Of a stretch of DNA of 64,000 nucleotides, positions 3,101-64,000 are shown one piece after another (within the stretch, counting starts at the first letter, position 1; the number at the start of each line of letters is the position of its first letter). The notes under the pieces were generated by a model. The model saw only the letters and a list, made by a program, of their open reading frames with translations, made no database searches and was not told where the DNA came from. Source of the DNA: Blasia pusilla (lineage: Eukaryota); assembly GCA_050084515.1 (NCBI GenBank), contig CM114271.1, forward strand, positions 47,554,001 to 47,618,000. The letters run 5' to 3'. Both the position numbers and the translations under genes were made by a program.

Positions 3101-3859
3101 CGCACCCACAAGAAGAGGCCATCAGTAGAAACGAAAGGACTCCTGGGTGGTGAAGATGAAAAAAACTACACAAGGGCTCCGTGCCTAAGAATACAATCAA
3201 TTCTTTCAAGTTGTGCCATCTGGAAAGAGACTATATTTATTAAATCCATAGCCCAATTTCAGATTCATGTTCAAAGAGGAAGCAGAACTGTGGTCTGACT
3301 AAGTGCGATCCATGTCCTAGCCAAATATGGTGTTCTTTGCGCAGCACAAATGCCCTAATTTCCAGGGTTTGATCATTTACCCAGTCTACATGCGACTCAA
3401 ATGTAGACCGACATACTGCGGCATCCTCACCCAGGTCCCATCTCTTCAGAGTTCCATCCCTACTTCCTGTGAAAAGAAAATCTCTTCCTGTGCCTTCTGC
3501 TTGTCTCCCGACCTTGACACAATTGATGCCTGAACAATGCTGCTCGGAAGAACCAGGCCAGAAGGTGTGAATGAGTTGATTAGTCGACCAAACTCTATTT
3601 TTCTACGAAATGCAGATTGGAAGCAGGATGATCGCATATTTTCACAGAGAAACGCTGGGCAATTCTGTAATTTGAAATGGACTAGACTAAGCAACAATTT
3701 AGGTTGAACACACTAAGAAGGTCGATTAACCGTCCACAGAAGTGATGAAGTTTCCAAGACCTTGTAGTCATTGGAGTCCCGCAACACATAGGTGAAGCGT
3801 TTTTCCTTGCGAGGGCGTGTCGAATTTGCAGTATTTCCAGTGCTGCCGACGCGATGCAT
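117..3859 (-). CDS. WDR48: WD40-repeat protein WDR48/UAF1 (plant LRS1) homolog, multi-exon, 3' part continues beyond the left window edge
   Basis: ATG at 3859 gives [30 protein letters not shown] exons then encode HCSGINC...[12 protein letters not shown]...[13 protein letters not shown]...[33 protein letters not shown]...[14 protein letters not shown]...[15 protein letters not shown]...[49 protein letters not shown] and VKVWEITRG. These match WDR48-family peptides. Confidence 0.92.
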
Positions 3860-28412: not shown

Positions 28413-29053
28413 TGTCGTGCGCATACACATCGCTACACAACATACATCGTTGTCACCGAACACACACACAAACACGCATGATCCTATGCTAACTCATGGC
28501 ATCCAAACAACGAGACAAGAAGTACCAAAATATCTCCAATAAAGTAAGATCCAATCTTTCTCTACATCATCTCACACCATAGCTCTCAAAGGTGTGCACT
28601 CTCTCTCATGTCAAACCAAACCCACTCTCCTAATGAGAGGCTCGGGCTACACTCACAAGGCAAGGGACCATAGCTCCGCCGCCTCATGCTAAGAGGTTCA
28701 ACAAAGAGAGAATGAGTTCTCAAGCTCTCTCTCCTTGAGGTATACTCCTCCCCTCTCCCAAGCTCTCTCCATGGTAACCTATTCTCCCAAGTCACCTCCT
28801 TGGCTCTTGACCTGATGTAGGAGGTCAAGGGTCACTTACCAAAAATAGTAAGTCGATCATATACTCAAAATGGTACTTACCTAAAATAGTAAGTTCCTCA
28901 ATATGGCTCCAAATGAGCCGAAACGAAGGGGAAACCTGCTATCTCAGGTTTCGAAGGGCCTCAGCAGGTCACCCTCGACCTATTGGGTGTGTCCTCCACT
29001 ACTCATGAAGGCGCTCTATTAGATCTCACCGATCTATCCTAAAAGACGTGACA
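28413..29053 (-). mobile_element. Solo A-B terminal repeat of a second split-repeat retroelement family ('W'), with 4-bp TSD AATT
   Basis: Minus strand starts TGTCACGTC (29053) and ends GCGCACGACA (28413). AATT flanks both sides (28409-28412 and 29054-29057). The A part is homologous to 63139-63644; the last ~45 bp are nearly identical to the B end of the element at 59728. Confidence 0.8.
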
Positions 29054-35900: not shown

Positions 35901-37329
35901 GGCGTGGTGCGGTAAGTCAAAAAAGTTTCTATGATCTCATCGAGGGAGTATACCCGCAACTCTAGACATCCCACACAAGTCTAGGCCTCTAAAATTATAC
36001 ATCAATGATGCTCTCAACATCTACAGAAACCCAATATCCCTATTGACTGACCAATACCCAGAAATCCCTCATACTTGCAAGGCTAAAGACCAAAATTGGT
36101 AACGTGAACAATGTCGATGTCGCTTCTAAGCAACTGCAAACTTGAACCCAACTCGGTTATGAAGATAACTCCTCCAATCAGGAAGTTGTACTTCCCTAGT
36201 GCTTACGATGCTCAAACCTCCTCGATGTATGGTGCGGGTATAACGGTATGATGCGGTACAATGCGGTACTAGCAACACGGAACGACTAGAAAAATTTGGC
36301 ATTTGGGGACGGGATGCAACATGCAGCGGCATCCCGTCCTCTATCAGCCATAAACGCTTTGCTCCTCAATGTTGGTGCGGTTGTACGATGGAGACCACGA
36401 GCGGCATGGCGTGTTGCAACTACGGTTGTCACAGTACGTTATTCAATCATTTTCAAGCAACTACTAACCATTATGCATGGCTGACCATACCTCCAAACTC
36501 ATCCCCATCCGTCGACGACATTTGAATAGCGACAAGCGGTGGTTGACAATCTTGAAATAAACGATAGTGGTGGAACGATAGATGGCCGATGAAGATCAAT
36601 GGTAATTATCGTATGTGACACATGGATAAACATGGTTCTATTTTAACCTTATTCAAAATTTAATGTCTTCTTCTTTTTCCACTCCACTAACCCCTTTAAA
36701 AAATGGTCAACTCACTAAAATTACTCCACTAAGCCCCACAAATCTTAGGTCAATATCCATTAGATAAATTTTTCACTTGAATTCACCCTTAGATCACTTT
36801 TTCTCTTATCTTATATACTAAAATAAAAGGATGTTTACTTTTCTAGCTGCACCAAATGAAGTTATAAGATTTAAAATTTTTTTACCTTCATGCATTGGCT
36901 ATAGCTGAGCTCCAATGTTGAAATTGCACACCATTTCTTCGATAATGTGCATGACTTCCTAATCTACAACAAACATCAAATCAGGTTATTCATCCAACCT
37001 TTCATCTGAAACTCGTAGCGATTGTAGTGCAACCCACGGCCTAAACTCCTACAAAAAAATCAATAGCGCTTCCACACTGATTTCTTACACAAAAAATTTC
37101 AAACCTATACAAATGAAATTTAGCAAGCTAACGGGTGCTACAATGAGCACCAACATGAAGAATCCAATCTCCTTACTCAAATTTTATAAAAAATTGGGTA
37201 GCACTTAATTCCGTGCATCATTCTCTCGTACAAATATCTGCCCAACAAAACATTCAAATGAATGGCTCTTGCTCCCATGAGCAATCCCATGAGTCACTGG
37301 ATAGGGAACGCAGTCCCCAACTTGCAACA

Positions 37330-37627
37330 ACAACGAGAAACCACTGAGCTCCCACATTGTAGCGCTCTCAATCTCTTATTCTTGGCTCTTGACTTGCTAT
37401 AGGGATAAAGGGCCACTTCCCAAAGTGGAAAATCAACTCTACTCCTAATGGTAACTTAATTGAAATATTAAATTTCTCTTTATAGCCCCAAATGAGCCAA
37501 AACAAAGGGGAAACTTGCTCTCTCAGGTTATACATGGCAAGTCATCCTCGATCTCTTGAGGCTATCCTATGATATCCTTGAGGGCGCTCTACCATAAGCT
37601 TGTCAATCCATCCTAACATATGTGACA
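37330..37627 (-). repeat. Degenerate fragment of family W A repeat
   Basis: cttggctcttgac...cccaaatgagccaaaacaaaggggaaacttgct...ccatcctaacatatgtgaca parallels 28799-29053. Confidence 0.6.
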
Positions 37628-38199: not shown

Positions 38200-39000
38200 T
38201 TTATAATCAAGCGTTGTCCCCTCTAAGGCAATCCTAAGCACCATCCTCAACTTTCTTGATTTGAAATTGCCTTTAGAAAGTTAGGTCTTGTAAGTTTTTT
38301 ATTGGAGAAGTTCGACAATCCAACAAAAAACTTCTTGAAATCATATATCTCTTTCACGATAAGAGGTTTAGAGGAATAGAAATATTCAATAATCTTCTCT
38401 AATGAATTTAAACAACATAAATTCTTGTGACAAAGATGTCAAGAGAAATGACTAAACATTTGATCAATTTGATCATGAGTATGTCCAACCATGAAAAACC
38501 CAACTTTCACTTTATGGAATACCTCTTTCTCCACAAGCATATTAAGATACGCAAGTAAATGCTTATTTTCATTTCCCCGCATAATGTTTTCAAGCTGCAA
38601 GTAGAGGACAAGAGGAAGATTAGCTTCCCATTCTTTGATAATATTATGTAAAACTTTCATGGTCAAATTCATCTTATTTCGAATGTTCGGGTAATTCAAA
38701 AAAACCCTAGACAATGACTTCTTGTTGAAGTTGAGATATCGTACCATATGTACTAATATGAAATACTTCTTTTCCATATTTTTGGGCATACAAATGAAAT
38801 GAGGTAGTTCTGATTTCTTCGGATCCATCCCATAGATAACCACTCCAACATACTTTTCTAGAGAAGTGAATCATTTCTTGCAATGTTTCAAAAGTTTCTC
38901 CCTCTCTTTCATTTGTTGATTTCGGTGTGTAGCTAATGCGAACACATACTTTTCTATGCAAGAATATATGAACTTGTCAAACTATCTCATGATGAGCCCT
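38200..39000 (-). pseudogene. Degenerate DNA-transposon transposase fragment (Sola-like / DUF7869-type)
   Basis: GMDPKKSELPHF, LYLQLEN...NENK and FFMVGHTHDQIDQMFS motifs; frameshifted. Confidence 0.55.
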
Positions 39001-44300: not shown

Positions 44301-44945
44301 CCATGAATGAGAGTTCTCCACGGCCAGGTTGTCGAGGAACCCGAAACCAGATCGTAGCCTTGGATAGTTCTCCTTGGGAATTCGTGCGTCTCTTTCATCC
44401 ACCATCCCGGCCACGCAGGGTCGAGAGTTGCTCGCTCTTCTTTTCGACCTTGCTGACCGTTTCTCCACCGGCCGACTGCCCTCAGACCACGCTGAGTTCC
44501 TAGCCGCCCGCGGAGTGCGCTGTTTCCCGGAAGATGTGGTTGATGATGCAGCGCTGTGTGTTCTCGGGCTGATGTTCTCCCCGGAAAACTGACTTCTAGC
44601 TCCGCATCCGCACTTGAAAGAATCGTAGCGAAACTTGTCTAGCGGTGCAGCGTAAAACCTCTCCGAATGTAGGTATGAGGTGCGCCCTTGGGTTTTGGAC
44701 CAACCTCTTGAAGTGGACCTATCGATGCAGAAGTTTTTCAGCATTCTCGGCTCTTTCTTGGCAATCAAGGCATGGTGATTAGGGTTCACAGATCGAGAGC
44801 CAAGCCCCACTTCTTTCTGGGAGAGGCCACTCGAGGTGCCGTAGATATTGCTCGCCTCCCACTTTGTAGACTTCTTCTTCACAATAGCGACGTCATGATC
44901 CACCGAATTCCTCTCGAAAACCAGAGGATGAACCAGAGCACTCAT
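41380..44945 (-). CDS. Mitochondrial carrier family (SLC25) protein, aspartate/glutamate carrier (AGC1/citrin)-like, with ~460-aa N-terminal extension; exons ~43449-44945, 43074-43199, 42170-42574, 41380-41556
   Basis: Three carrier signatures PX[DE]XX[KR]XR: YPLDTVKTRMQ, NPMEIVKVRLQ and TPLDVIKTRLQ. AGC-type peptides PQLVGIAPEKAIKFTVNE, ARDIPSTAIFF and ARVLKTSPQFGITL. GT-AG introns are in frame. Confidence 0.85.
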
Positions 44946-47294
44946 GATTCTTCCCAACCCTCCGACTTCACCTCATGAACTACCGCCCGCAGCAGAATAA
45001 CGCCGACGTGATTCGCGCCTCGGCGGAGGAAAAATTAGGATTCGATTTCAGTACAAATGTATTTGTGGGAATTCCAACAGTGCAGTAGCTACCTTCAGAC
45101 AGGCCGTGCCTTTCTCGGAGTCCCAGATCACCCACCGAGCGTCGTCCGAAGACAGCAGCAAATTGGATACCGAATGGAGAAGGCGAGGTCAGTCACCACA
45201 TTTCGTCAATTGAAGAAAGTGGGCTAGTCCCCAATAGCGGGACACGATATTGGTCTATCGGAGAATGAGCACAGTTCGCGCACCGACTGCGGGAAGAGCA
45301 CCTTCAAAATCCCTCGCTCGCTGTCGTCAATTGCCACCGGGAAGACGTTCCAGCTCTGACTGAGAAACTACCGCTTCTGAAAGACTTCTGAATTCCTCGA
45401 ACGCAGAAAAAATTGACTACGCTGTGCGATTCTCTGATCACGAGGTCCTCGCGATCCCAAAAAACCCAAACTTCTTTCTCTTGAACCCCGTGACGCTCTC
45501 CGAAACCGCGACCTTTGCAGAATCTTCTCCAATCTTCCTCCAAGCTCTCTCCGAGTGTACGTCGGCCTTTCAACACTGCAGTTCTAGTTCAACGAAAGCC
45601 ATCGACCGCAGCCACTGATCCCAATTTCCCGTCAGCACCGCAATTTCACACCTCATCAGAGCACCCGTCGCGTCTACCATCCCCGCAATATCTCAAAATC
45701 CATCTCTCGGACCGTCTCAAAACCCGGCGCGACAAGGACGACCGAAGACGGGCTTCCAACGTTGCGCGGCAGAATCAAGAAGAATCAGGGTCAAGCAATA
45801 ATCGCAACAGTTCATTGAGATTGACAGAGACTGGCAGCTCTCGAAGGGTGAAACTGAGAGAACTTGCAGAACCCTTTAAGAAAGATCTGCGTGATGTCAT
45901 CTATTGTGACAAAAGGGGTCCATTTCTCTGTATTGTACTTTCCGGAGATCGTTTCATCGTCCGTCCTCTTTCCCGTTCTCAGAGGGGGTGATGGGAGCCG
46001 TCAGATTTCGTCCATCGACGGTGAAAAGTCGTGGCTTCACCAGGTATTGACATCACTCGCGCACGGGCGCTCCAGATCCTTAGGAAGTCGAAAGTGAGCG
46101 CAACGCGTGGCACTGGTGTAGGAGATCTCCAGATCGGAAGACAAAAGTGGATGTCAGGATTTCGCCCGCGCCATCGCCAGCGCGTTAGTCACTGGCTCTC
46201 GCAGACGATAACCCGACGGCGACTCTCTACCCATCTCTCCGTTCCACCGTCGTCCTCATGACGGCGCAAGAGGAGCCGTTAGTCCCTTGTCGGTGACCCA
46301 CGCCACCTCGTAGGGAAATTCCCTCCACGTAGGCTTTTTCTTTCCCTTCTCTTTCCTTTGAAGCTTTCAGGGGCCTTTTCCATGACTAATGGAATTAACC
46401 TTCGAATTTGAATATGTCGCAGCTCCTGATTGGGCCTGGGCATAGCAGGAACTCCTTGTGAAACATGAGTTCGATTGTAGAATAAGAATAACGTGGAACG
46501 CTATAATGTAAAATAAAATAAATGCTATATTTGGTTTGTTTGTAAACCGTGTTCACGTTCAAGTCATGGGAAACCTAGGTTGCTAGAGGTCTTCTTTGTT
46601 GTTAGAGTTGGGGCCCATTGCCTTAGTTTAAATTTATTTATTTTTTAGTCATGAGGTGGGGTTGTTTCTTTAACTAAGTGCACATGCTCCTTTTTTTTCA
46701 ATTTTTCTCTGCGTGTATTTTCCCATCTTCTTTCTCCATGATCTTTCTTGGTCTTCTTTTTATGGCATCTTTCTTTGAGTGACCATCCACCTTGCTTTAC
46801 AAATTCACCTAGTGGCTAGAAAATATTTCTTATCTTCATGCTAAAATCTTTTTCATATGATTCGAGATATTCTCCACATAGAACACGTGAATTAAAGATC
46901 TAGAACTATCTCCCAACCACAACCAGAACTACTTTGATCCATCACAATTGAAGTGAGAGAAAATATTGGGAGCCATTTCCTTTTCTACGTTGGTTCTTCT
47001 AAAATTCACCAAATCACACTTATTTGCATTTTTTTTTCCCGTTTCAAATTGCTTTCTTTATTTTTAGAGCTACGTAGTTAAATTTCAAAAAATTGATTGC
47101 AAATAACACCTTCATTTTGCTAGACCCCATTACAAATAGAATATGTAAAAAACTTAAATCAAATGTGCACTAAGAAAACTTAGGAAAATAAGTACAAAGA
47201 TAGTTTGGATGAGTGTACTACTAAAATAAGAAATTTTGTGGTTAATTATTGATTTAAATTTTTAATTTCCATCATTTTTAATTTATTAATTATG

Positions 47295-47668
47295 CGACCA
47301 TGGATCACCTAGTCACCTACGCATATAAGTTATCATTGAAGAAGGTTGTTTTTAAGGGGAAGAGCTTTTTGGCTCTTCCCTAAGCTATAAGAGAGGGAGA
47401 GATGGCATTCTCAAGCCATCTTTCTCATGTTGGGTCTTTGAAGTAGCTCTCTTGCTTGGATTATAGTAGGAAGTAGGGTGTTAGCGCCTAGATTCCCTCA
47501 TAACATAGGGTGGATATGGTTCAATATAACGATGTAGATTCGACGAGGTATGTTGGCCATATGAGTCGCTTTTACTTTGATTTTTTTGTGTGATCTTGGT
47601 ATATATAGGTGAGTATATTTTGTTTGTATGTGGATCTACCCGTGTGTTGGGAAGATTGGTGATGACAT
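47295..47668 (+). repeat. Old A-B copy of the split-repeat family
   Basis: ggggaagagc...ctataagagagggagagatggcattctcaagccatctttctcatgttggg...gatttttttgtgtgatc...gggaagattgg aligns with ~59300-59670 across the A/B junction. Confidence 0.7.
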
Positions 47669-47849
47669 GCGCCTATTCTCTTGAACGTCGATCTTATGCA
47701 ATGCTAAAGCTTGTGTTTAGTAGGACACCCTCATATTGTTGATCTCCATCCAAACACACTACATTACATCTGGTTTGAGTCCATCAACCTTACATTTCCC
47801 TAAGTTCCTAACCCCTTACTTCCAACACAAACATGCGAGGAAGGAGAGT

Positions 47850-49258
47850 GCTTAGCTAGCGCTACAGTGTGGTCCATGACACATTTAAGGTGCTATCTAT
47901 TTGGTAACCCTTTCATACTTATCATTAATCATCAGCCGTTGAGATCAATGATAAGTCAAGATGGCTAAACCAGGATGCAGTTGGGTCGAGTCGCAACCCA
48001 TACTCGAGTCAGAGAGACAATACAGGAGTTTGACGGCACGGAGAGAGTGATGAGGAGATGGTGCCCGGTTGGCATGCATCTGCCTTCCTTTGTTGGTTGA
48101 CTACATCAAGTTAGCAGTAGGTGGTGACTTTAATGATGGGTGAGATGATGAGTCTCCATATCCAGAGGTCAATGAGGAGACAATGGGTAATCGTGATATC
48201 CATAATGACATGGAGTTTTTGGAGTTCCTACGTAATGACGTCATAGCAATGTATAGTGAGTGTTAGGGAGCATAATTGGATCCTATAGAGAGCCAAGAGG
48301 TTCAAGTAGGAGGGGACACACCTTTTTTGAATGTAGGGGGATGATAGAGTACGAGTGGTGCCTCATCTTTCCCAGCAAGCACATGTAGTGCGACATGCCC
48401 ACGAGGAATTGGGGCACTTTGGTATAAAGCGTCCTTATAGCTTACTCCACCTTAAGTATTGGTGGCGCAACATGCATACTGAGATTCAATAGTTTTTAGC
48501 CAAGGGTATGGTATGTGACCAAGTGCGAGCATCCTTCAATGCTCCCACTTCACAGTTGCATCCATGGCTTGCAGCGAGGACATTTGAGGGATTGAGACCT
48601 ACAGTTGCCATGGTTGGCCATGGGGTATTGCTTTAGTTGGCAGACATTCTTTGCATTGTTTGCGCCATACCTTATGCTCTATGGGAGGGAGTTGGCCTTA
48701 CTTATAGCTATTCAACGTAACATGGCAGAGGTTTTGGATCTTGATGACCTAGATATTTGGGTACAAGCATGTTCTCAGAGGGCGGAGCTTTTTTGTAGAG
48801 TTATGCCCATTGCATTTGAGAATTTAGCTATTGCTCACCATAGGGATACATTGAGGTATGCTTTCATTTGTGGAGGGGGTTATTGCCTAGGGATTAGGAT
48901 GCTCCATGTTGAAGATTATGTGTATTTACACCATGCGGAACCCATCACTATAGGACGCACGATTTTGTATGTGCGTGAGGTGTTATCGCATGGAGTGCTT
49001 ATTTTGGAGGGACAGTATGGTATGGTTTGGAAGGATCGTGTGCACAATTGTGCGCCATGTTATCTTCAAAATGTGGATAAGATAGTGGATTTGATCGTAG
49101 CAATGGTATGGGCTTGAGGTGTATGTTGCATGGATTTGCGAGGGGTGCAGTCACCAGTTGGTGTGTGATGGTTGTTCTCGAGGGTGACATACATCGTGTG
49201 TGACACCCCCTCTTGATGCAATTCCCACGAGACTATGCTTATGTCCTAGATGTGTATA
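47850..49258 (+). mobile_element. Older, internally deleted copy of the RNase H-integrase-PHD region of the same retroelement family
   Basis: Nucleotide similarity to 57030-58893. ORF 48605-49117 (LDLDDLDIWVQACSQRAELFCRVMPIAFENLAIAHHRDTLRY) matches 58072-58548, with a decayed PHD at ~49118-49258. Confidence 0.85.
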
Positions 49259-49930
49259 TGTCGCGACCCTCATAACCAAACAACACCAAATAGGCGCCAA
49301 GCGGAACATCAAACCACTAGTGGATTCATAGGGCCTAAGTCTTGGTTTACATTTGGTCCAGGTTTCCTAGTTCGCGATCATAAACGCGGGAAACAAACAA
49401 CTCAATTCCACGTTTCGTCTCTTGGACTTTTCCAAGAGACCTCTCCAAAGCGCAATCATAGTAGCATGATGCTTAATGTCACCATAGGGCGCACGATGAT
49501 CATGCTTTGGAGAGGTCTTTTGGAGAGGTCTCTTGGAAAAGTCCAACAGACGAAATGCGGAATTGAGATGTTCGTTTCATGCGTTTGTGGTTGGGACTAG
49601 GAAACCTAGACCAAACGGAAATCAAGACTTGAGATGAGTTGAGTCTAGGAAGGTTGGTTGCCAAAGAGGTGAGAACCAGTTTTGGAACATGAGTAGCGTT
49701 TGGGGATTTTGACTGTATTTTGGACCATAACATTTAGTTCCAAAATGCGTTTGGGAAAAATAAGATGGCATTGAAAATCTTATGTTGAGAAAATTCCAAC
49801 GCACCAAAAATCTTAGCAAACGCACAAGGATCGGTTGAGATATTGGCCGAAAATAATTGTGAGAGCAATTGGGTTGAGGGCCAATTTGAGGGGCCCAACT
49901 TTCTTTCCCTAAAGTTAGGGGAAGGGCGGG
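49259..49930. repeat. Family Z fragment containing a ~113-bp inverted repeat; abuts the left end of the main element
   Basis: Starts TGTCGCG. 49337-49450 and 49518-49630 are reverse complements of each other. Homologous to 23400-23870. Confidence 0.65.
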
Positions 49931-50376
49931 GATCAGCCAAGATCTATCGTGGATAGGGCGTAGGAGCCAGCAGACTATCTTGAGTGTAACTATGTCCCAC
50001 GACGTCGGATGAGGTTGAGGATAGGTCCATTGTGTGAGGAACTTCGTTTCTGACAACTTTCATGTTGAGGTCTTTTACAGCCGGGTGACTTGTTGACCAG
50101 GTCATCCACCCTTGGTAACTTGTGCGCACAGGTTACAAATGGGAGGGCTATTTTTAGGGTTTAGGAACCCTATATAAGAGAGGAAGATGGCTTTCCTAAG
50201 CCATTTTTCTCATGTTGGGCTGTTGGAGCACCTCCCTTGTATGTGTGTGAGATAGGACTAGGGTGCTAGCGTCCGGATTCCTTGATAGCACAGGGTGGAC
50301 GAGGCTCGATATGCCGATGTAGATTGAGGAGTGGAGTTATACGCCGGGTGTGACGTTTTTACTACTCTTTATTTTT
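49931..50376 (+). repeat. Repeat A1 (5' terminal repeat; first ~18 bp missing)
   Basis: Aligns with A2 from gatctatcgtggataggg to gtttttactactctttattttt. It is not followed by B. Confidence 0.9.
50171..50177 (+). promoter_or_regulatory. TATA box of the retroelement promoter in repeat A
   Basis: ccctatataagagagg is identical in A2 (~59385); ctataagagaggg occurs in the older copies at ~47386 and ~59993. Confidence 0.65.
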
Positions 50377-50390
50377 ACATGAGAAAGATG
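50377..50390 (+). other. Primer-binding-site position; self-complementary to 50202-50215 (putative self-priming site)
   Basis: ACATGAGAAAGATG pairs with CATTTTTCTCATGT (one G-U pair) 31 nt downstream of the TATA start. No TGG tRNA-type PBS is present. Confidence 0.7.
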
Positions 50391-51704
50391 TCAGGGGGCT
50401 GGTGGGAATTCGTTGTTTGCAGGTAGGCAAGCGAGTTGCCTTGGTCAGGAGCCCGTGGAGACGTTGGTTGGCGTCGTATTTGTCATTTTTTTTGTTTGCA
50501 AGGCCGTGGGCGGAAGCGCTGTCCGTTTTTCTCAAATTTTGTTGGTGCACGGGTATTGGGGACATCGGCAGAGTGTAGTACGGAGTGGGCGTCGGGTGTA
50601 CGCGAGTGAGGGTGTCGAGAGAGAGAAGAAAAGAGAGTTAGGTCTTGTAGCCGCTGGGGGCGCTGACGGGCGTGTAGGTTGGCGGGCGCGGACAGACGGC
50701 AGCCCATAGGGGTGCGGCCCCCCCCCCCGTGCGGGCATTTAGGGCCCAAGGGGCTGCATAGGGCCGCGTGCCAAGTTTCCCCCCTCCAACATGGTAGGAG
50801 TGGATGTGGTGGAGTTGTAGGGGCAACATGGTAGGGGCAACGTGGTTGCGCATGGGCACCGTGGTGGCGGGGAGGATGATGACCGACATAGTTGGACAGC
50901 GGACGTGGATGATGTTGGATGATGTTGAGCTACGTGGTTGAGAGTGCGGATGTGGTCGGGGTCATGTTCACGTGGGCGGACATGGCGTATGTGGTAGGAG
51001 TGGATCCGACATGGGTGAGTTCGGTTGCGCAGTGGAGAGTTTTGCGGGACTTAGTGTCTCACGAGCGTGGATGGGATTCGCGATAGCACTTTGTCGGTTG
51101 TTACGAGTAGGTTGGAGGACGACTCATTAGTTCTTCAATGACTGGGAATTGTGAGCGTTGTGATGGGGACACACGAACCTACACTGACGGGAGGTTTGAC
51201 GTGTTGGTCGAGGAGAGTGTCGTGTTGGGGAGATTGTCATATCACGTGGAGGAGTGCATGTTGATGGTATAGCAGGTTGGAGGGCGTGATCAGGTTACCC
51301 ATTCGAGTCCCTTTTCCTGCACTTGTCGTGTGTGATTGAGAGTGCTGGGTATCGGGTAGTAGCTGGTGCTAGGTGGGTGCAGTGATGGTGATGAGTGTAG
51401 ATTCTTTTCATGTGTACCATGTTGGTGGATATACTGGCGGTTGCTTTAGTAGGGTCGCGTGTATGACCCGAGAGAGTGTCGCTAGGTTAGGTGAGTCAGT
51501 TGGGAGGCTCATGGTGAGCCCGAGTGTTGAGTGTGCGTGAGGCCGGGTATGTCATCACGGGATTGATGTTAGCATAGGTGAGCTAGTGAGGAGTGTGGGA
51601 GACTTGCGGTGTGTCTGAGTGCTTGAGCGGGTGAGACAGGGTTTGTCATCACGGCGTTCTTCCAGGGTTCGGAAGAACGGGGTAGTGCGAGCAGTAGTAG
51701 TGGT

Positions 51705-53714
51705 GTGACACGCAGTGGAGTGAGATACCGAGGGGTTACCAGTGAGGAGCTACCTCGACATCCATCCGTGGCTGGATCGTCATCATTGGACCTTTGGGTC
51801 AGTGATGAGATCGCGCATGAGAGACGAGAGTACTTGGCAGGAGATGGACGACATGTGCCATCGGGGCATGCGTCGTTTCTCGGGTGCAGTGGGCACCATC
51901 GACTTAGATGATTTTATCCAGGAGGTCGACACATGGTGCGACTTCCAAGAGATACGGACCCCGACACCGTTCAACCCTTTCATGGCATGGAAGGGGTTGT
52001 TCCAGCACTTGGAGGGTCCTCCGATGGATGACTACATGGAGTTTCGATCACTATATTCAATAGAGATCGATGCTTGGAGGATGTATTGGGCTCCAGGGTA
52101 TGTGTCCACTAGTGGTCGCGAGGCATATGATGGGATTATGAGAGGAGAGAGACCCACACCATCAGCCCGGAGACTAGATGGAGAGGAGGGCAGTGAGACA
52201 GGCGATGTGGCACAGACCTCTTGTGGTAGAGGGCCACCCGGCAAAGCCCCACAAAGGGAGTTCTTCGGCGGTTGGGGAAGAGCTACCAGGGCGTACGCAC
52301 CGACAAGCTTAAGAGTCTACAGGATTTTCAGCGACGATCGGGTGAAAGTCTGAGAGAGGCATTCACACGCATGAGGAGGCTGATCATTGCTACGTTTGGA
52401 GTGATTGAGGCGCAGTCAATCCAGTATTGGTACGGGGTTCTGGACCGAGAACTACGGAGGAGAGTCCAAGATGCGGTGCTGATTCACATAGCGAAGCCCA
52501 CGTTGAAGGTGGTCTTTGAGTTGTCTGAGCGTATTGAGCTCAACATGAGTGAGGAGCAGGTAGTGACCGCTGGATTTTCTCAAGAGTCGACGGGTCCACG
52601 AGCGACGGTGACCCCACAGGTGCCACAGCAAGCACCAGTACCACGGGAGCGGGCCAGGGTGCCTAGAGAGTAGGGCGGGTACCGTGAGCCTATGAGGAAA
52701 CGACCCGTACCTACATATGTTGCCTAGCAAGGACCGATGTGGTCTTGATGGACGTGTGGAGGGGCCCATAGGCAGAGAGATTGCCCACAGCATGGAAGAG
52801 GACCACCAGCGCCTCTAATTTCTCAGGAGCCACAGAGGATGGCCCCACCACAGCACCAGTGTGACCATTGCCACAGATATGGTCACACTAGGGATAGATG
52901 TTTTGACCTTCGTCGAGGGGCACGTCCGGAGGTAGGCCGAGGGCCTGGGGGTGGTCATCTTGGAGGAGGTTGGGGAGTTCTTCCTGGACGTGGTGGTAGA
53001 GGACCACCACCAGCCAGAGGAGATGGAGCAGGAGCACAAGAGCCGACACTTCTCTTACGCATCGATTAGTTGGAGCAGAGGATTGCTGCCATGACGATGA
53101 TGCAGCTTAGGGAAGGCACGGAGCTACGAGCAGCTAGTGTGACTCCAACTTCTACCTCTTACCCTAACCCGGGTGAGGATCTCGCAAAAATGGGATTTAT
53201 GTGTAGTGCAGCCCAGGTTGAGGCAACTGCAATGGTGACTCGGGGTGCTGCGAGAGGCACCGAGCCATCGAGAGGTAGAGTTGAGATTGACCCATCAGAG
53301 GGGACCGATGGGCGGCAGGCCAGGGTTCCACAGTCATTCACATTGTCGGAGGCACTACGCACACCATCGATGGTGCCTCGACGACCAGCGGTGCCTATAG
53401 CTCAGACACCTACATCGACATCACGAGGAGTTGGAGTGACAACTCCTATGCCGGCTCGAGTGGAGTCAGTGTCGACCATAGTGTTGGAGGTGGCCACCAG
53501 AGTGAGTCAGACTCCACTATTTTCTGCCATAGAGTTGGCGACGTTGGGAGTTGGACCAGCTGAGGTGTTCCGGTTGGCCGCCACGTTGTGTGAGCGTGGA
53601 GAGATGACCGCTTCTTGTTCAGAGGTAGTTGAGGAGGTGGTGGACTTGCCCTCAGAGCCGGTGCTCAGGATGTTTCCCATAGAGTCATGGCATGCGGCGC
53701 GGCAAAGTTGGTAG
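51705..53714 (+). pseudogene. gag: gag (capsid-like region plus CCHC zinc knuckle), disrupted
   Basis: Begins with TRSG. Retrotrans_gag-like FQRRSGESLREAFTRMRRL, zinc knuckle CDHCHRYGHTRDRC at ~52860-52901, then an RG-rich tail. Frameshifts and stops are present. Confidence 0.75.
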
Positions 53715-53716
53715 AT

Positions 53717-54100
53717 ATGCCAGCTCGATCGGCCATAGAGCGAGCAGTGGTGACACCTGGAGTAGTGTTACTGGATAACCGAGCTGGAGTATTTCGCTTG
53801 GTTAGTCCGACGGGGACTGTATACCACCCGCAGCCCGTCCTACTTGATTCGGGAGTGCAACCCTTGATGTTAGGGAAGGCGGCGTGTTTAGCGTTGGGGT
53901 TACGGAAGGCCGACATTGAGCCTTGTCCCTTCCAAATACAGACCTTGATTGGGGGCGTATCACCCACTCAGTATATGACTCGACATGAGATTGTTGTTAG
54001 AGTCCAGCTAGAGCATGCAATGGATAGTGCTATGGTGCGCACACGTGCGATTACGACACCAGCTGAGTTGTACGATGTGTTAGTGGGGAGTACAATGTGA
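53717..54100 (+). pseudogene. Retroviral-type aspartic protease
   Basis: VLLDSGVQPLMLG active-site motif and YDVLVG (D-x-L-x-G) C-terminal motif. Confidence 0.75.
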
Positions 54101-54565
54101 TATCCCCTAGGATTCATCCTTGACTTCTGGGAGGAGACCGTTGCTTATCGGCCAGGATGGCGGTCAGGTGACGGCCGGATGAGTCAGTTACCCATGCAGT
54201 TTGCGGGACAAGGTGGTCGATCACTAGGCGAGTCTGTGACCACGTTGGCGGCTTTCACAGGTAGTGTTAGCTGGCCAGGAGAGTTGTTGGAGGGGAACGC
54301 ACATGCGGAGGATGTCCCAGTAGCGGATAGTCCCACGGAGAGACAGGCCATGGCGGGTGTCTCTTCCCATGTTGGCAAGGCCTCTTCACCATTGTGGGGT
54401 ACGACTCGAGAGCTACAGAGGAGTGACGACGACCTCGTGAGGCAGGCGTGGAGTCATGTTTTTATCCCAGAGCAGCGAGAGTCACGTGGCAATCGGGCTC
54501 TTGGAGTGGAGACATTGACCCCACTGGATACCACACCCGTTGTGTGGCAGTGCCTAGAGGAGGGT

Positions 54566-55515
54566 GTTAGGGTGTTAGATCTTTTCAGAGGGATTAGCAC
54601 CGGATTGGCTGCACTATTGCAGGCGGGCATACGGGTGCATCAGTACCTTTATGTGGAGAGAGATGAGACCGCACGGCAAGTATCATTACGTCACGTGGCG
54701 AGATTGGTCTAGAGGTATCCTGAGTTGTTGCCGGTATCTGCAGTACGGGGATATCAGCATACACTACATGCCGACATCTCTTTGGTGGGGGCGCAGGATC
54801 TGGATAGAGTTGGCACCATTCATTTGGTGATTGCTGGATGGCCATGTTAGGGTCATTCATCAACTGGCCGAGGATTTGGATTGCAGGATCCGAGGTCAGT
54901 GATGTTTTGGGAGATGCTGCGAGTAGTACGACACTTGCAGGAGAGTCAGATATGTTCTCCAGGGTACATTTTGGAGAACGTGCCGTTGCTGGAAGACACT
55001 CGTGCACGTGTGATGACGAGTGTACATCAGGTGAGGTCTTGCTTGGGACATGCTGTGTTGTTAGATGCAGCGAGAGTTGGGTCACGTGCCCATCGTCCAT
55101 GACTGTGGTGGACGAACCTGATACCATCAGAGGTACTGAGTCGAGCATACGGTGGAGTCCAGAGAGCACCACATCTCACAATGGATGCTATTTTGGGCTC
55201 AGGGCGTCGATCTCAAGTGGTGATACGGGATGATAGACCACCGTTGGCTATGGCCAATAGGATGGGGGAGTTGAGGGCAGCCTTACCTACGTTGGTGAGC
55301 TTCCCAACATCCCATGCCTTTCGTCAAGGAGGGCTAGGCATGATTTGGGATGAGGTGACCGGAGCATTGGAGGAGCCTAGAGCAGATGAGCGCAAACGCG
55401 CCATGGGGTTTGCTACCGGTACTACGGCGGTGCCAGGGATGACTGAGGCATCCCGGAGATAGGTGTTGGGGCAGGCGATGGACCTCAACTGTCTTACATG
55501 GATAGTCAGCCTAGG
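54566..55515 (+). pseudogene. C5 cytosine DNA methyltransferase domain, DNMT3-like, in frame with the protease
   Basis: Motif I VRVLDLFRGIS; II YVERD; III ADI; IV LVIAGWPC*GHS (Cys 54845-54847); V GLQDPRS; VI YILENV; VIII DAARVGSRAHRP*LWWTNL; IX ERKRAMGF; X RR*VLGQAM. All lie in one frame with four in-frame stops. Confidence 0.88.
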
Positions 55516-55899
55516 TATGGCTGAGCAGAGACGGATGCAAGTGTCATCCATGCCGTCACGTCCACGAGTTGGACCATTGCCTATAGGGTCTGTACAGGCA
55601 TTGGCTGGGGGCGAGACGAGGAGAGATAGGCACCCATGGACTTCTTGGGACGTCGTTCGAGCAGAGAGTGTGAAGGCGGCTAAAGTAGCACATGTTCATT
55701 TTTTGGATGTGAAGCATGGTGTAGGAGGTCAGAGTGGAGTGGCTGTTGCGGAGGTGGCTAGGGTTGCTACATAGCAACCAAAACCGGAGGTTGCGTCCTC
55801 TCCAACTGAGGTCACGATGGAGACTTGGGAGCCTGTGACTGGAGTCTCAAGTTGATAGGAGGAGAGCGACGGCGAGTTCATAGGTTTCTGAGAGGGCAT

Positions 55900-57250
55900 G
55901 TCAGTTGTTTTGCATTCAGTATGAGAGACTTGGGTACGCTAAAGGTCCCGGGATACGGATTGAGTTGGCTAGTGATACGCCGATCTTTCGTCGATCCTAC
56001 AGGTATTCTGATATGGAGCGAGCCTTGATTCAAAGCAAGAGTCAGGACTTGTTGGAGGCAGGACTTGTGGAGTTATCACATGGGGAGTATGCATTTGCCA
56101 CAGTCATGCCGGCGAAGAAGGATATGTATGGCAATTGGACGGATAGGCGGATGTGTGGAGATTACCGTCCTATCAACCGACAGACGAGGTCAGATTGGTA
56201 CGCCATGCCTACTCCTGAGGAGATCTTTGATGCGGTAGGGCATGCAAAGATCTTGATATTTTTAGATCTCCGTCTTGGCTATCATCGCTGGCCCTATCGA
56301 GTTGGAGGACAGGGAGAAGACAACATTGTGGGGGATAGATTGGTTCGGGAGAGATTGCTTGTATCAGTGGTGGTTCTTACCATTTGGGTTGAAGAACGCG
56401 CCTGCAGAGTTTCAAAGAGTGATGGATAGGATTCTGGCTAGCTTGGATTTTGTACGATGTTACATAGATGATATTCTTATCTTCAGTTCCACGATTGAGG
56501 AGCATGAGCGACACTTGGAGGATGTGTTTAAGCGATTGCGATTACATGGGTGAAGTTACATCCGAGCAAGTGCAGATTCTTTCAGGAGCAGATTGAGTAC
56601 TTGGGACACACCATATACCCGAGTGGGTTAGGCGTTGATGAGCGAAGGTAGAGGCTATTTGCAGATTCCACGCCCTCTGAGATGTGAGTCGAGTTCGAGC
56701 ATTTCTTGGACTGGCCAACTTCTATCGATGGTATGTCAAGGGTTTTAGTGCGATCGCAAAGTCTTTGACCTTGTTGACGAGACTTGATCAGGTTTGGTTG
56801 TGGGGAGATGATCAGGAGCGAGCATTTTAGGAGCTCAAGGACAGGTTGTCGTCCTCACCCATTTTACAGAGACCGGTTAGGGGTCGCCCATTCCAATTAC
56901 ATACAAATTGGAGCATGTTGGGTCTAGGAGCAGTGCTTACTCAGAGGGATGACGAGGAGAGGGAGTTCGTTGTGGCCTACGCGAGCCGATCGAACAACAT
57001 TGCAGAGGTGAAGTACAGCTCCTACGAGGGAGAGTGCTTGGCCGCAATGTGGGCCGTGGCACATTTCAGGTGCTATTTATTCGGCAACCCTTTCACACTT
57101 ATCACTGATCATCAGCCGTTGAGGTGGTTGATGGAGTCCGACAAGCTTACGAGAAAGCTTGCCAGGTGGGCTCTATTACTGCATGAGTATGAGTTTGAGG
57201 TGGTTCATAGGCCAGGTTGGCTAAATGAGGATGCGGATGGGTTGAGTTGT
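55900..57250 (+). pseudogene. pol: Reverse transcriptase and RNase H (Ty3/Gypsy type)
   Basis: RT: RMCGDYRPIN, LDLRLGYH, PFGLKNAPAEFQRVMD, YIDDILIFS. RNase H: LHTNWSMLGLGAVL, AYASR, YSSYEGECLA, LITDHQPLRWL, NEDADGLS. Confidence 0.93.
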
Positions 57251-57649
57251 AACCCATGTCCGAGTCAGAGAGACGATACAAGAGCTCGATGGCACGGAGA
57301 GAGTGATGAGGAGATGGTGCCCGGTTGGCATGCATCTGCCTATCTTTGTTGGTTGACTATGGCAGGTCAGCCACAGGTGATGACTGTAGCGGTGGGGTTG
57401 GATGATGAGTCTTTGGATCCGGAGGTTAGTGAGGAGGTGACAGGTGGTTGTGATATCCATGACGATGTGGAGGTTGTGGAGTTCTTGCGCACTGGCGTCA
57501 TTGCAAGAACACTGAGTGCTAGGGAGCGGGATCGGATCCTATAGAGAGCCAAGAGGTTCAGGTGGGAGGGGACTCACATTTTGCGGGTGTGGGGAGATGG
57601 TAGGATACGAGTGGTAACCCATCCTTCCCAACGAGCACCTGTAGTGCAA

Positions 57650-58893
57650 CATGCCCATGAGGAGTTGGGACATTTTGGAGTAAAGCGTACTTACAGCTTA
57701 CTCTAGGTTCAGTATTGGTGGCGCGGCATGCAACTGGGGTACAGCAATTTGTGGCTAGATGTATGGTATGTGACAGAGTGCGAGCATCCTTCAATGCTCC
57801 CACTCCGCAGTTACATCCTTTGCCGATTATGGGTTTAGGTTATCGGTGGAGTTTAGACTTTGCGGGACCTTTGCTATTGACGGGGCGTCATAATAGGTAT
57901 GTCCTGGTCATGGTGGAGCATTTCTCCAAGTGGATAGAGTTGGTGGCACTACCAGACAAGGCAAGCAAGGGAACAGCTTATGCGTTTCTAGATCGTGTGC
58001 TTAGTCACTTTGCTGCACCGACGGAGGTGTTGACTGACCAGGGTACCGAATTCAGGGGAGAGTTTTAGGCCTTGTGTGATCAGGGGTTGATAGATCACCG
58101 CACCACGTCCAGAGATCATCCTGAGGCGGATGGATTGGCGGAGAGAGTGGTACAGACGGTGAAGAGAGGATTGCGCAAGTATGGCTTGCAGCGGGGACAC
58201 TTGAGGGAGTGGGACCTACAGTTGCCATGGTTGGCTATGGATTATCGCTTTAGTCGGCACACATCCTTGGCATCATTTTCACCGTACTTTTGGCTCTTTG
58301 GGAGAGAGCCAGATTTACCTGCAGCGATTCGAAGTGACATGGCGGAGGTGTTAGATCTTGATGATCGAGATGTGTGGATACAAGCATGTTCTCAGAGGGC
58401 AAAAGTTTTTCGTAGAGTTATGCCTATGGCCTTTGAGAACTTAGCTATTGCCCAACATAGAGATACATTGAGGTACGCGACCATTCGTGGAGGAGGTTAT
58501 TGTCCAGGGATTAGGAGGTTTCATCCTGGAGATTACGTGTATTTATAGCACGCGGCACCCACGAGGCTAGATGTCACTGCAGGGCGCACGATCCTACGTG
58601 TGCGTGAGGTATTACCGACCGAAGTCCTCATGTTGGAGGGACGGGATGGTATGGTTTGGAAGGATCATGTGCGCAATTGTGCGCTATGTCATCTTTCGAA
58701 CGTAGATGGGACGGTGGATCCGAGCTTGGCAGTGGTACCTGCAGGCTTGAGGTGTATGTTGTGCGGATCTGCGAGGGGTGGAGCCACCATATTGGTATGT
58801 GATGGTTGTTCTCGAGGGTGGCATATGTCATGCCTGAACCCCCCTTTTGATGTGGTTCCCACGAGACGATGGATGTGTCCGAGATGTGTATAG
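57650..58893 (+). pseudogene. DDE integrase (HHCC + rve) with C-terminal PHD finger
   Basis: HEELGHFG...CMVC zinc domain; catalytic region WSLDFAGP, LTDQGTEF, ADGLAERVVQTVK; FHPGDYVYL; C4HC3 finger CMLC...LVCDGCSRGWHMSCLNPP...WMCPRC then stop at 58893. Confidence 0.9.
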
Positions 58894-58935
58894 GGTAGTA
58901 GGTCATGTCAGAGAGATGTGATATTTTCTATCTGG

Positions 58936-58970
58936 AGTTGGGGGGATCCAACTGCCAGCTAGGGGGGCGG
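58936..58970 (+). other. Polypurine tract AGGGGGGCGG preceded by a small hairpin (agttgg-ggggat-ccaact)
   Basis: Lies directly upstream of B1. The same arrangement is conserved at ~37668-37700. Confidence 0.7.
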
Positions 58971-59728
58971 TTGTGTGATCTCCATGTATATGTATGAGTT
59001 GATTTTTTTACATGTGTGGATGGACCCGTGTGTGGGGAAGATCGATGTTTTGTGGTGTAGATGTGACCAGCGATGTATGTTGTGTAGCGATGTGTATGCG
59101 CACGACAACTGTCTCATCTGAGTAGCCGATAGGCCGAGATCTATCGTGGATAGGGAGTAGGAGCCAGCAGACTATCTTGAGTGTAACTTTGTCCCACATT
59201 GTTGGATGAGATTGAGGATAGGTCCATTGTGTCAGGAATGTCGTTTCTGACAACTTTCATATTGAGGTCTTTTACAGCCGGGTGACTTGTTGACAGTCAC
59301 CGCCCCTGGTAACTTTGTCAGGCACGTAGGTTACCAAGGGGAGGACTATTTTTAGGGGAAGAGCCTTTTGGTTCTTCCCAACCCTATATAAGAGAGGAAG
59401 ATGGCTTTCCTAAGCCAATTTTCTCATGTTGGGCCGTTGGAGCACCTCCCTTGTATGTGTGTGAGATAGGACTAGGGTGGTAGGGTCTGGATTCCTTGAT
59501 AGCACAGGGTGGACGAGGCTCGATATGCCGATGTAAATTGAGGAGTGGAGTTTTAGGCCGGGTGTGCCGTTTTTACTACTCTTTATTTTTGTTGTGTGAT
59601 CTCCATGTATATGTATGAGTTGATTTTTGTACATGTGTGGATCGACCCGTGTTTGGGGAAGATCGGTGTTGTGTGGTGTAGATGTGACCAGCGATGTATG
59701 TTGTGTAGCGATATGTATGCGCACGACA
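58970..59728 (+). repeat. 3' terminal structure B1 (58970-59107) - AC - A2 (59110-59590) - B2 (59591-59728)
   Basis: B1 and B2 are both 138 bp with 6 mismatches by eye. B ends CGCACGACA and A starts TGTCTC. Confidence 0.92.
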
Positions 59729-59730
59729 AC

Positions 59731-60328
59731 TTAGTTAGCTGACTTGTAGAGTTCTACAGCGTTGACACATAGAATGTCAACAAGTTGTTTAGGTGTAACT
59801 TTTACCTGAGATGTTGGATAAGGTTGGCGACAGGTCTATTGCGCCATAAACATCATTTTTGAAGAAATCCCTATTTTGGTCTTAGTCAGTCAAGTGACCC
59901 CTTGATCGAGTCAACGGTCACCCGATGACCTGTGCATACAAATTACCATTTGTAGCTATTTTTGGGGGAAGAGCCTTGGCTCTTCCCAAGGCTATAAGAG
60001 AGGGAGAGAATGGCTTTCCCAAGCCATATTTCTCATGTTGAGCTTTTGGATCACCTCTCTTGCATATGTGTATTGGAACTAGGGTGCTAGCGTCCGGATT
60101 CCCTCATAAGAGAGGGTGGATGTGGCTCGATGTACCGATGTAGATTCGGGAGTGGAGTTGGCCGCGTGAGCCGTTTTTATTCTAATTTTGCCGTGTTGTC
60201 TCAATATACATGCTTGAGTTCATTTCTTGTATGTGTGTGGATCGACCTGTATATTAGGAAGATTGGTGTTGTATGGTGTGGATGTGATCATCGATATGGA
60301 TTATGTAACAATGTGTATGCGCACGACA
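59731..60328 (+). repeat. Diverged A'-B' copy of a related subfamily, directly abutting B2
   Basis: Aligns loosely with A2-B2 along its length (gggaagagcc...ctataagagagg...ctagggtgctagcgtccggattcc) and ends gtgtatgcgcacgaca at 60328. Confidence 0.8.
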
Positions 60329-63138: not shown

Positions 63139-64000
63139 TGTCACGTCTCTTAGGATAGATCGGTGAGATCTAGTAGAGCGCCTTCGTGAGTAGCGGAGGA
63201 CAGGCTCAGTAGGTCAAGGATGACCTACTGAGGCCCCGGGAAACTTGAGAGAGTAGTTTTCCCCTTCGTTTCGGCTCATTTGGAGTCATATTGAAAAACT
63301 TACTATTTTAGTTAAGTACCATTTTGAGTATGTGATCAACTTTATATTTTTGGTAAGTGACCCTTGACCTCCTACATCAGGTCCAGAGCCAAGGAGTTGA
63401 CTTGGGAGCATAGGTTACCATGCGGAGAGCTTGGGAGAGGGGAGGTGTATACCTCAAGGGGAGAGACCTTGAGAGCTCATTCTGTCTTTGTTGAACCTCT
63501 TGGCATAAAGTGGCGGAGCCATGGTCCCTAGCGTTGAGAGTATAACCCAAGCCTCTCATTAGGAGAGTGGATTTGGTTTGACATGAGTGAGAGTGCAAAC
63601 ATGTGAGAACTATGGTGTTGTGAGAGAGATTGGATCTTATTTTGCAAAGAGAGAATGAGTGAGTGAGAGAGCTTCATGGTGGAGCTCGCTGGTCACTCAT
63701 TGGTTTTGCAGGTTGGGGATTGTATTCCTTGTTCACCGGTTAATGGGAGTGCTCACCGGAGCAAGAGCCGCTTACTTGTGAACATTTCCTTTGCCAATTT
63801 TTCATGTGGAAGAGTGGCGCGCGGAAGTGCTACCCAATTTTTAATAGGAATTGAGTATAGGGGCGGGTTGCCCCATGCCGGTGCTCTCGAGAGCATCATG
63901 TAACTTGCTGATTTGTATTTTTATAGGTTTTACATTTTTGTTGGGAGAAATCATCGCGGTAGCGCTACCAAATTTTGTGGAGGAGAAAGAGACATTGGGC
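63139..64000 (+). mobile_element. 5' end of a family W element: repeat A (63139-63644) followed directly by self-complementary PBS and internal sequence; continues beyond the window
   Basis: Starts TGTCACGTCT. It is the reverse complement of ~28545-29053 and diverges from that copy right after ggatctta, exactly where CAAAGAGAGAATGAG (63645-63659) begins. Confidence 0.75.

Follow-up and report, generated by a model that had tools for sequence, protein, structure and literature searches.

Reverse transcription of the fission yeast retrotransposon Tf1 is primed by the element's own messenger RNA (mRNA): the 5' end of the mRNA folds onto the primer binding site (PBS), forming a duplex of 11 nucleotides (nt), and a cut by RNase H frees the primer. 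More generally, in elements of the Tf1/sushi group such as Tf1 and Tf2 of Schizosaccharomyces pombe, the nucleotides directly next to the 5' repeat can pair with the beginning of the element's own transcript, a primer site of the transfer RNA (tRNA) type is absent, and the domains follow the Ty3/gypsy order. Here we describe an element that appears to share these features, element A, in a stretch of 64,000 nt from Blasia pusilla (assembly GCA_050084515.1, contig CM114271.1, positions 47,554,001 to 47,618,000 of the forward strand), hereafter the window. Judged by its sequence, element A is a decayed Ty3/gypsy relative with protease, cytosine methylase, reverse transcriptase (RT), RNase H, integrase and PHD finger. 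With a probability of roughly 75%, we consider Tf1-like self-priming from a predicted transcript start to be the best explanation for the complementarity found next to its first repeat module.

Element A differs from the Tf1/sushi group in several respects. At the C-terminus of the integrase, where Tf1/sushi and Tcn1 elements carry a chromodomain, it has a PHD finger; its repeats are split (A-internal-B-A-B) instead of forming two whole long terminal repeats (LTRs); the duplex measures 12-16 nt as against 11 nt in Tf1; and RNase H cleavage is here a predicted step.

Self-priming has also been predicted for 12% of surveyed plant LTR retrotransposons, belonging to the lineages Tcn1 and TAR, according to the main text of Neumann et al., 2019 (PMC6317226). 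A preliminary description of the present locus, made from its sequence, had called self-priming unusual for plant elements, which was overstated because of these earlier predictions. As given in the same text, Tcn1 comprises Ty3/gypsy chromoviruses of mosses and club-mosses related to Tf1/sushi, 95% of which have a chromodomain with an aromatic cage, and TAR belongs to Ty1/copia; liverworts, Marchantia, Klebsormidium, PHD and methyltransferase do not appear in it (PMC6317226). Element A resembles Tcn1 in its sequence-predicted self-priming and its occurrence in bryophytes, its closest named relatives being liverwort proteins, and differs from it in the PHD finger, the DNA methylase and the split repeats.

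We found one earlier description that matches the kind of element A, namely KnitGypsy-Dnmt3 of Klebsormidium nitens, which combines Gypsy domains with a C5 DNA methylase and has repeats ordered A-coding-B-A-B (Fig. 4c legend; de Mendoza et al., 2018, PMC5890265). Element A shares with it both the C5 methylase in a polyprotein with Gypsy domains and the order of the repeats; it differs in that the window copy is decayed, with a methylase Pfam match that is weak but collinear with a near-intact metagenome relative described below (locus L011). Within the open-access literature searched, the name KnitGypsy occurs only in de Mendoza et al., 2018, and the available text of that article mentions neither priming nor the polypurine tract (PPT), termini or target duplications of the element (PMC5890265). 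A streptophyte 'Gypsy-DNMT3' is named in passing in a 2026 preprint, the accessible part of which makes no mention of its priming (10.64898/2026.05.21.726589), and we found no account of priming in Gypsy-DNMT3 or in split-repeat Gypsy elements among open-access papers and preprints. Elements of the DIRS order (Ngaro, PAT-like) likewise show the order A1-internal-B1-A2-B2, with an internal joint that mirrors the joined ends; they use a tyrosine recombinase and make no target duplication, whereas the present lineage has a DDE integrase, TG...CA ends and 4-bp duplications. Which primer DIRS elements use for reverse transcription is described as unknown (PMC7192593). What seems new here is self-priming in a split-repeat lineage, the mechanism itself being already known.

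Complementarity at the repeat boundary in five families

Comparison of the window with itself and reading of the joints show that the repeats of element A are split into two modules, arranged in the order A1-internal-B1-A2-B2. Module A measures about 450-500 bp, starts with TGTC and contains a TATA box and the segment r, the predicted beginning of the transcript; module B measures about 140 bp and ends with GCGCACGACA. The candidate self-primer binding site, P, begins at the first base after A1. The preliminary description was right to place it there, whereas the repeat it follows is half of a split repeat and not a complete LTR.

In element A, P (ACATGAGAAAGATG, 50377-50390) pairs with r (CATTTTTCTCATGT, 50202-50215) through 13 Watson-Crick pairs and one G:U pair, and the complement begins 31 nt after the start of the TATA box at 50171. 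An older copy of the same family, A, holds the perfect complement of this P, CATCTTTCTCATGT, at 47417-47430. A second family in the window, W, has the same geometry with a different sequence: CAAAGAGAGAATGAG at 63645-63659 pairs, with one mismatch, with CTCATTCTGTCTTTG at 63476-63490, which begins 28 nt after the start of the TATA box at 63448. On all these points the preliminary description is borne out, and every sequence it quoted was found in place. It had further reported perfect pairing in a minus-strand copy of family W (28413-29053). The perfect complement of the family W P, CTCATTCTCTCTTTG, is present in that copy near 28718; because the copy is without a primer site of its own, its A running into a B module instead, the pairing joins the repeat of one copy to the P of another and does not occur within the copy. 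When the 30 nt around the repeat end were shuffled 2000 times and duplex scores were compared with no demand on position, 25 of the 2000 shuffles reached or beat the real score for family A and 13 did so for family W.

Three raw RNA runs and one DNA contig set carrying the same species label were aligned to 49900-59130 at a likeness of at least 85%. The family A lineage is transcribed in these RNA runs, mostly in the orientation expected for sense RNA in the usual stranded libraries. At position 50205, a T in the window, C accounts for 20/21, 21/21 and 12/13 of the first-mate-minus RNA reads and for 18193/18224 of the DNA word depth. With this C, r in the other copies is the perfect complement of P, and the T is therefore private to the window copy. 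The C in other copies and transcripts fits a site that is reset in each replication cycle.

To look beyond the window, metagenome contigs were scanned once with an RNase H alignment, yielding 80 loci, and self-comparison was restricted to the 51 loci of at least 7 kb. BLAST of the window repeats against these loci found conservation at the DNA level only in the last ~40 nt of B, and the relatives were therefore analysed through their own repeats. Three further families, M, K and N, all on independent metagenome contigs, show the same geometry. The r and P sequences of the five families are unrelated, with CATCTTTCTCATGT in A, CTCATTCTCTCTTTG in W, AGTTTTTCTAGAATT in M (eight distinct loci), GACATTCTTGTCAAGT in K (L011) and TCTTTGAGT in N.

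In family M, whose RNase H is 42-51% identical to that of the window, AAT|TCTAGAAAAACT extends across the A1 end (bar); it pairs with AGTTTTTCTAGAATT, located 31-33 nt past TATAAAAGG. All 15 nt pair perfectly in L033, L042, L050 and L071, whereas in L021, L032, L044 and L079 the pairing is shorter or has one mismatch. In family K, CTTGACAAGAATGTC after A forms 16 perfect pairs with GACATTCTTGTCAAG(T), 26 nt past the TATA box; in an inverted-repeat scan after every B-to-A joint, this locus scored 40, against 18.5 to 33 in the other rows. In family N (A1 in L005 and L006; A2 in L002, L007 and L016), ACTCAAAGA pairs with TCTTTGAGT, 35-36 nt after TATAAAG, over 9 nt, or 7-8 nt in its own A1. As in Tf1, the sequence next to the repeat pairs with the element's predicted transcript start, the run measuring 14 nt in A, 15 nt in W and in M, 16 nt in K and 9 nt in N, and P starts 0-3 nt from the repeat boundary in all five families.

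As a control, we took the 23 nt around the end of A and determined their longest perfect complementary run with that module, both at 12 junctions where A leads into the internal region and at 15 junctions where A leads into B. The former gave runs of 10, 8, 11, 10, 15, 15, 11, 15, 15, 13, 7 and 16 nt, with the complement 26-36 nt after the last TATA in 12/12; the latter gave runs of 5-8 nt, with 0/15 in the 26-36 nt zone. The self-priming inferred in the preliminary description gains strength in that its geometry extends to three further families and is absent at A-to-B junctions, and in that the C at 50205 makes the pairing perfect; the ordinary LTR setting in which it was framed did not survive.

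These numbers bear on whether the complementarity could be a chance product of purine- or pyrimidine-rich sequence of low complexity. The segments are indeed AG- or CT-rich, and by run length alone W (8) and N (7) lie within the control range, not above its maximum of 8. Among the eight M loci, the number of shuffles (of 2000) that reached the real score was 0, 1, 1, 2, 4, 31, 43 and 216, the last belonging to L044. W and N are set apart from the controls by position and register, not by run length. Against chance stand the recurrence of register and TATA distance at every one of the A-to-internal junctions, across five families and at none of the controls, together with the 16 perfect pairs of K and the 15 of M, so that we judge this explanation very improbable.

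P could also bind the 3' end of a host tRNA, an internal tRNA half or another small RNA, its match to r being incidental. Half-tRNA priming is indeed reported for ~2% of plant elements in the main text of Neumann et al., 2019 (PMC6317226), and a look through the window and 52 loci yielded no tRNA genes with which P could be compared. In the five families, the first 20 nt after A contain no TGG. A 'TGGTGG' located 22-34 nt after A was considered as a tRNA site and rejected, as it is not conserved. Because P is unrelated among the families and yet matches its own r at the same TATA distance in each, this explanation needs five host RNAs and five coincidences, and we consider it quite unlikely.

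The strongest competitor comes from folding. When RNA spanning r to a point just beyond P was folded, the minimum-energy structure contained the r-P helix for A, W and 8/8 M loci, and such dominance would equally suit a purely structural role of the leader, in packaging, dimerisation or translation control, with the true primer being something else, for example a tRNA fragment bound elsewhere. In the same direction, families A, W and N have a TG(G)TGGGA/TGGAG motif 22-37 nt past module A, and the primer itself is inferred rather than directly observed. Yet the TGG-containing motif varies between families, the first TGG in family K comes at about +44 and the 20-60 nt after A1 in family M have none, whereas a tRNA site would be conserved and reset each cycle. 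Furthermore, P begins at the repeat boundary in each of the five families, as expected of a primer site and not required of a stem. A structural leader is accordingly an improbable reading, if less so than the two preceding ones.

Several points weigh against self-priming, in addition to the run lengths of W and N and the shuffles of L044. The ends of the folded RNA were chosen at r and P, which favours the helix. The transcript start at r is predicted from TATA distance only: no pile of RNA read starts was seen at 50202 in the RNA runs, and read depth is equal on both sides of 50202, since read-through from B1 into A2 runs across the start region. The RNase H cut and the RNA-DNA junction are likewise predictions. 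In family N, the helix is short and its probability is at most 0.21. Finally, the eight M loci are one family, so that independent support comes from five families and not from twelve copies.

Split repeats, integrated ends and coding content

The coordinates of the element and of related copies in the window are collected in Table 1. The A1 of element A is without its first ~20 nt, and the r copy in A2 (59416-59429) differs from the complement of P at two places. Two whole LTRs flanking PBS and PPT were not found: A alone precedes P, and the PPT is followed by B-A-B. We considered two ways of fitting the modules to ordinary LTRs and rejected both. An LTR of B+A at both ends is contradicted by copies that begin with A (TGTC) beside unrelated flanks and end with B (GACA), with 4-bp duplications at these positions; an LTR of A+B followed by a primer site is contradicted by the fact that what follows B is always A or flanking sequence and never P.

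Table 1. Repeat modules, priming signals and coding regions of element A and of related copies, in window coordinates.
Feature	Position	Strand	Basis and remarks
W A-B unit without internal region	28413..29053	-	A 29053-28541; B 28540-28413
Third family W copy	37046..37627	-	~258 nt missing, removing TATA box, r and P
Older A-B unit, family A	47290..47675	+	CATCTTTCTCATGT at 47417-47430
Older copy remnant: RNase H, integrase, PHD region	47840..49258	+	PPT at ~49900-49923 abuts A1
A1 module, element A	49924..50376	+	88% identical to 59133-59590; TATATAA at 50171-50177
r, predicted first 14 nt of transcript, complementary to P	50202..50215	+	T at 50205, C in other copies
P, candidate self-primer binding site, from first base after A1	50377..50390	+	Pairing, fold, junction comparison
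Internal region, decayed, many stops and frameshifts	50377..58969	+	Pfam scans; tblastn with L011 ORFs
gag-side piece	51811-52089	+	tblastn with L011 ORFs / Pfam scans
Protease and C5 DNA methylase	53675-55531	+	tblastn with L011 ORFs / Pfam scans
RT	55887-56679	+	Pfam RVT_1 at 56266-56648
RNase H	56831-57541	+	Pfam RT_RNaseH
Integrase	57545-58065	+	Pfam Integrase_H2C2 and rve
PHD finger	58549-58890	+	Pfam, E 4.7e-11
PPT, AGGGGGGCG, directly before B1	58961..58969	+	G-run at same place in relatives
B1 module	58970..59107	+	93% identical to 59591-59742; ends GCGCACGACA; then spacer AC, 59108-59109
A2 module	59110..59590	+	Starts TGTC; r copy at 59416-59429
B2 module, joined directly to A2 end	59591..59728	+	Joint 50376 to 58969/58970 present in reads and contigs
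Older diverged A-B unit	59731..60328	+	A 59731-60192, 5'-truncated; B 60193-60328, ends GACA
A1 module, family W	63139..63644	+	Starts TGTCACG; TATA at 63448; r at 63476-63490
P of family W	63645..63659	+	Internal region continues past window end

The same architecture recurs among the metagenome loci. The full order A1-internal-B1-A2-B2 is present in L021, L032, L033 (with B2 cut short), L042, L044, L050, L071, L079 and L080; L079 and L080 are near-duplicates, which leaves eight distinct complete copies, all of family M. Eleven more loci have B1/B2 pairs alone. In the relatives, A starts with TGTCATG, B ends with CACGACA and a G-run stands directly before B1. The joint between A2 and B2 consists of the exact end of A and the start of B, and the joint from B to A reads ACGACA-NN-TGTCA in about 20 loci; in the reads and contigs aligned to element A, both kinds of joint are seen, in RNA and in DNA. 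A1 was sought in L040, L045, L064 and L068 and not found there, and a candidate B-to-A joint in L003 was rejected for want of an A module at that locus.

Seven relatives retain both ends. As judged by eye, the 4-bp flanking duplication is perfect in four of them (ATGT in L032, AATG in L042, TCAT in L044 and TTTA in L079), three of four letters match in L021 and L071, and there is no match in L050. In the window, the minus-strand W unit is flanked by AATT on both sides (29057-29054 and 28412-28409). The TGTC...GACA ends and the 4-bp duplication together indicate that the integrated unit begins where A begins and ends where B ends, inserted as by a DDE integrase; TG...CA ends with a short target duplication are those of Ty3/gypsy elements.

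Some loci depart from the complete form. In the close relatives L004, L009 and L010, the PPT and B (ending at 2750, 9312 and 3582, respectively) are followed by unrelated flank, with no A2-B2; this could be an A-internal-B form or a product of B-by-B recombination, and it fits a one-repeat circle as well as such recombination. The end of the L011 contig (9240-9317) resembles its start (1-40), and A is followed by P rather than by B; the contig represents either a tandem array or an assembly in which the A2 path was joined to that of A1. A real example of such a tandem is seen in the window, where the older copy and element A follow one another as internal-PPT-A-P-internal.

In the window region 59068-59113, the last ~40 nt of B are conserved between the families and in relatives from other sources. 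Families A and W share B ends, as is evident from RNA reads that leave B and continue into A starts of the W type (GT-TGTCACG...).

The Pfam order RVT_1, RT_RNaseH, Integrase_H2C2 and rve is that of Ty3/gypsy elements with a DDE integrase. The window element and L011 both have a C5 methylase ahead of RT and carry a PHD finger at the C-terminus of the integrase. The methylase's own Pfam match in the window is weak (E 0.003, 54851-55099); the window segment 53675-55531 is 39.5% identical to the L011 methylase region over 625 amino acids (aa). L011 is near-intact, with two open reading frames (ORFs): ORF1 (1369 aa; protease and DNA methylase), which matches PF00145 at E 1.8e-13 and has Asp_protease_2 upstream of RT, and ORF2 (1047 aa; RT, RNase H, integrase and a PHD finger at E 2.6e-10). 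The two stand in one frame at 976-8226 with a single stop codon between them. By tblastn, the window element is collinear with both. Neither the scanned window ORFs nor the two long L011 ORFs gave a match to tyrosine recombinase (PF00589).

Searched against proteins, the RNase H ORF had 107 matches at E <= 1e-10 among 2052 candidates. The best named matches are from liverworts (Calypogeia fissa, 69%; Riccia sorocarpa, 68%; Marchantia polymorpha), and one Klebsormidium nitens protein (P0078) is among the 107. Within these relatives, PF00628 (PHD) was found in 23, PF00145 in five and PF00385 (chromodomain) in one.

The alignments of RNA and DNA reads also point to differences between copies. The leader at 50516-51131 appears to be private to the window copy, as it has near-zero depth from other copies (35-215 in DNA contigs against thousands elsewhere, and likewise in RNA). 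Where the window copy shifts frame, about one third of RNA reads have a C inserted after 57702 and lack a base at 57708; neither change is seen in the X1 DNA contigs, and the variant reads probably come from other copies.

Other sequences surround the retrotransposons. A short element with inverted arms (49337-49469 against 49519-49896, within 49259-49900) lies between the coding remnant of the older copy and its PPT. It resembles a small non-autonomous DNA transposon, and a related sequence is present at 23416-23812. In the regions 22279-24044 and 38442-38870, both on the minus strand, PIF1-like helicase fragments (E 7e-13) suggest a Helitron remnant, and a DUF7869 ORF (E 3e-29) suggests a transposase-associated gene. 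Host-type genes are found at 1658-3602 (minus strand), 6432-8884 (plus strand) and 42119-44972 (minus strand), with matches to WD40 repeats, a ubiquitin carboxyl-terminal hydrolase with zf-UBP and a mitochondrial carrier.

A possible replication cycle

In LTR-type replication, the minus-strand primer sets the boundary of the repeat. Based on the positions of P, PPT and the joints, we propose the following order of events. Transcription would start about 30 nt after the TATA box, inside A, and the first 12-15 nt of the RNA (r) would fold onto P, starting at the first base past A1. The element's RNase H would then cut the RNA at the r-P duplex, and the freed 3' end would, as in the Tf1 mechanism, prime copying of the rest of A from its last base; that A ends exactly where P begins would follow from this start of minus-strand synthesis. 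The PPT directly before B1 would prime the plus strand. Ordinary strand transfers would yield B-A-P-internal-PPT-B-A, in which the terminal repeat has the form B+A.

Because P follows A1 and the PPT precedes B1, the integrated ends (TGTC...GACA) are a circular permutation of the repeat expected from reverse transcription. The A2-to-B2 joint looks like two complementary DNA (cDNA) ends put together, and the B1-NN-A2 joint looks like the site that the integrase opens. More specifically, the cDNA ends would be joined, giving the A-to-B joint, and the product would then be opened at the upstream B-to-A site, giving A-P-internal-PPT-B-A-B. In the near-palindrome GACA-NN-TGTC, a pair of nicks after CA would produce ends of the integrase type; integrases can cut palindromic circle junctions in vitro. 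We advance this joining and opening tentatively, at somewhat less than even odds: the step is drawn from anatomy alone, and why the alternative opening (A-B-A-internal-B) is unseen is left unexplained, which counts against it.

Taken together, a Gypsy lineage of bryophytes and charophytes may replicate by a scheme between those of LTR and DIRS elements, combining self-primed cDNA of the form B+A, joined ends, opening of GACA-NN-TGTC by a DDE integrase and permuted integration with a 4-bp duplication. We regard this composite scheme as possible, though rather doubtful as a whole.

The location of P provides a replication scheme that can be tested for this lineage: P directly after A1, the PPT directly before B1 and integrase-type ends at the B-to-A joint together define a concrete order of events. 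If the composite scheme is true, split direct repeats at large, among them those of Ngaro and PAT elements, might mark self-primed elements with a joined-end intermediate. Such elements will be missed or wrongly annotated in bryophyte and charophyte genomes by annotation pipelines that search for a tRNA primer site and two whole LTRs.

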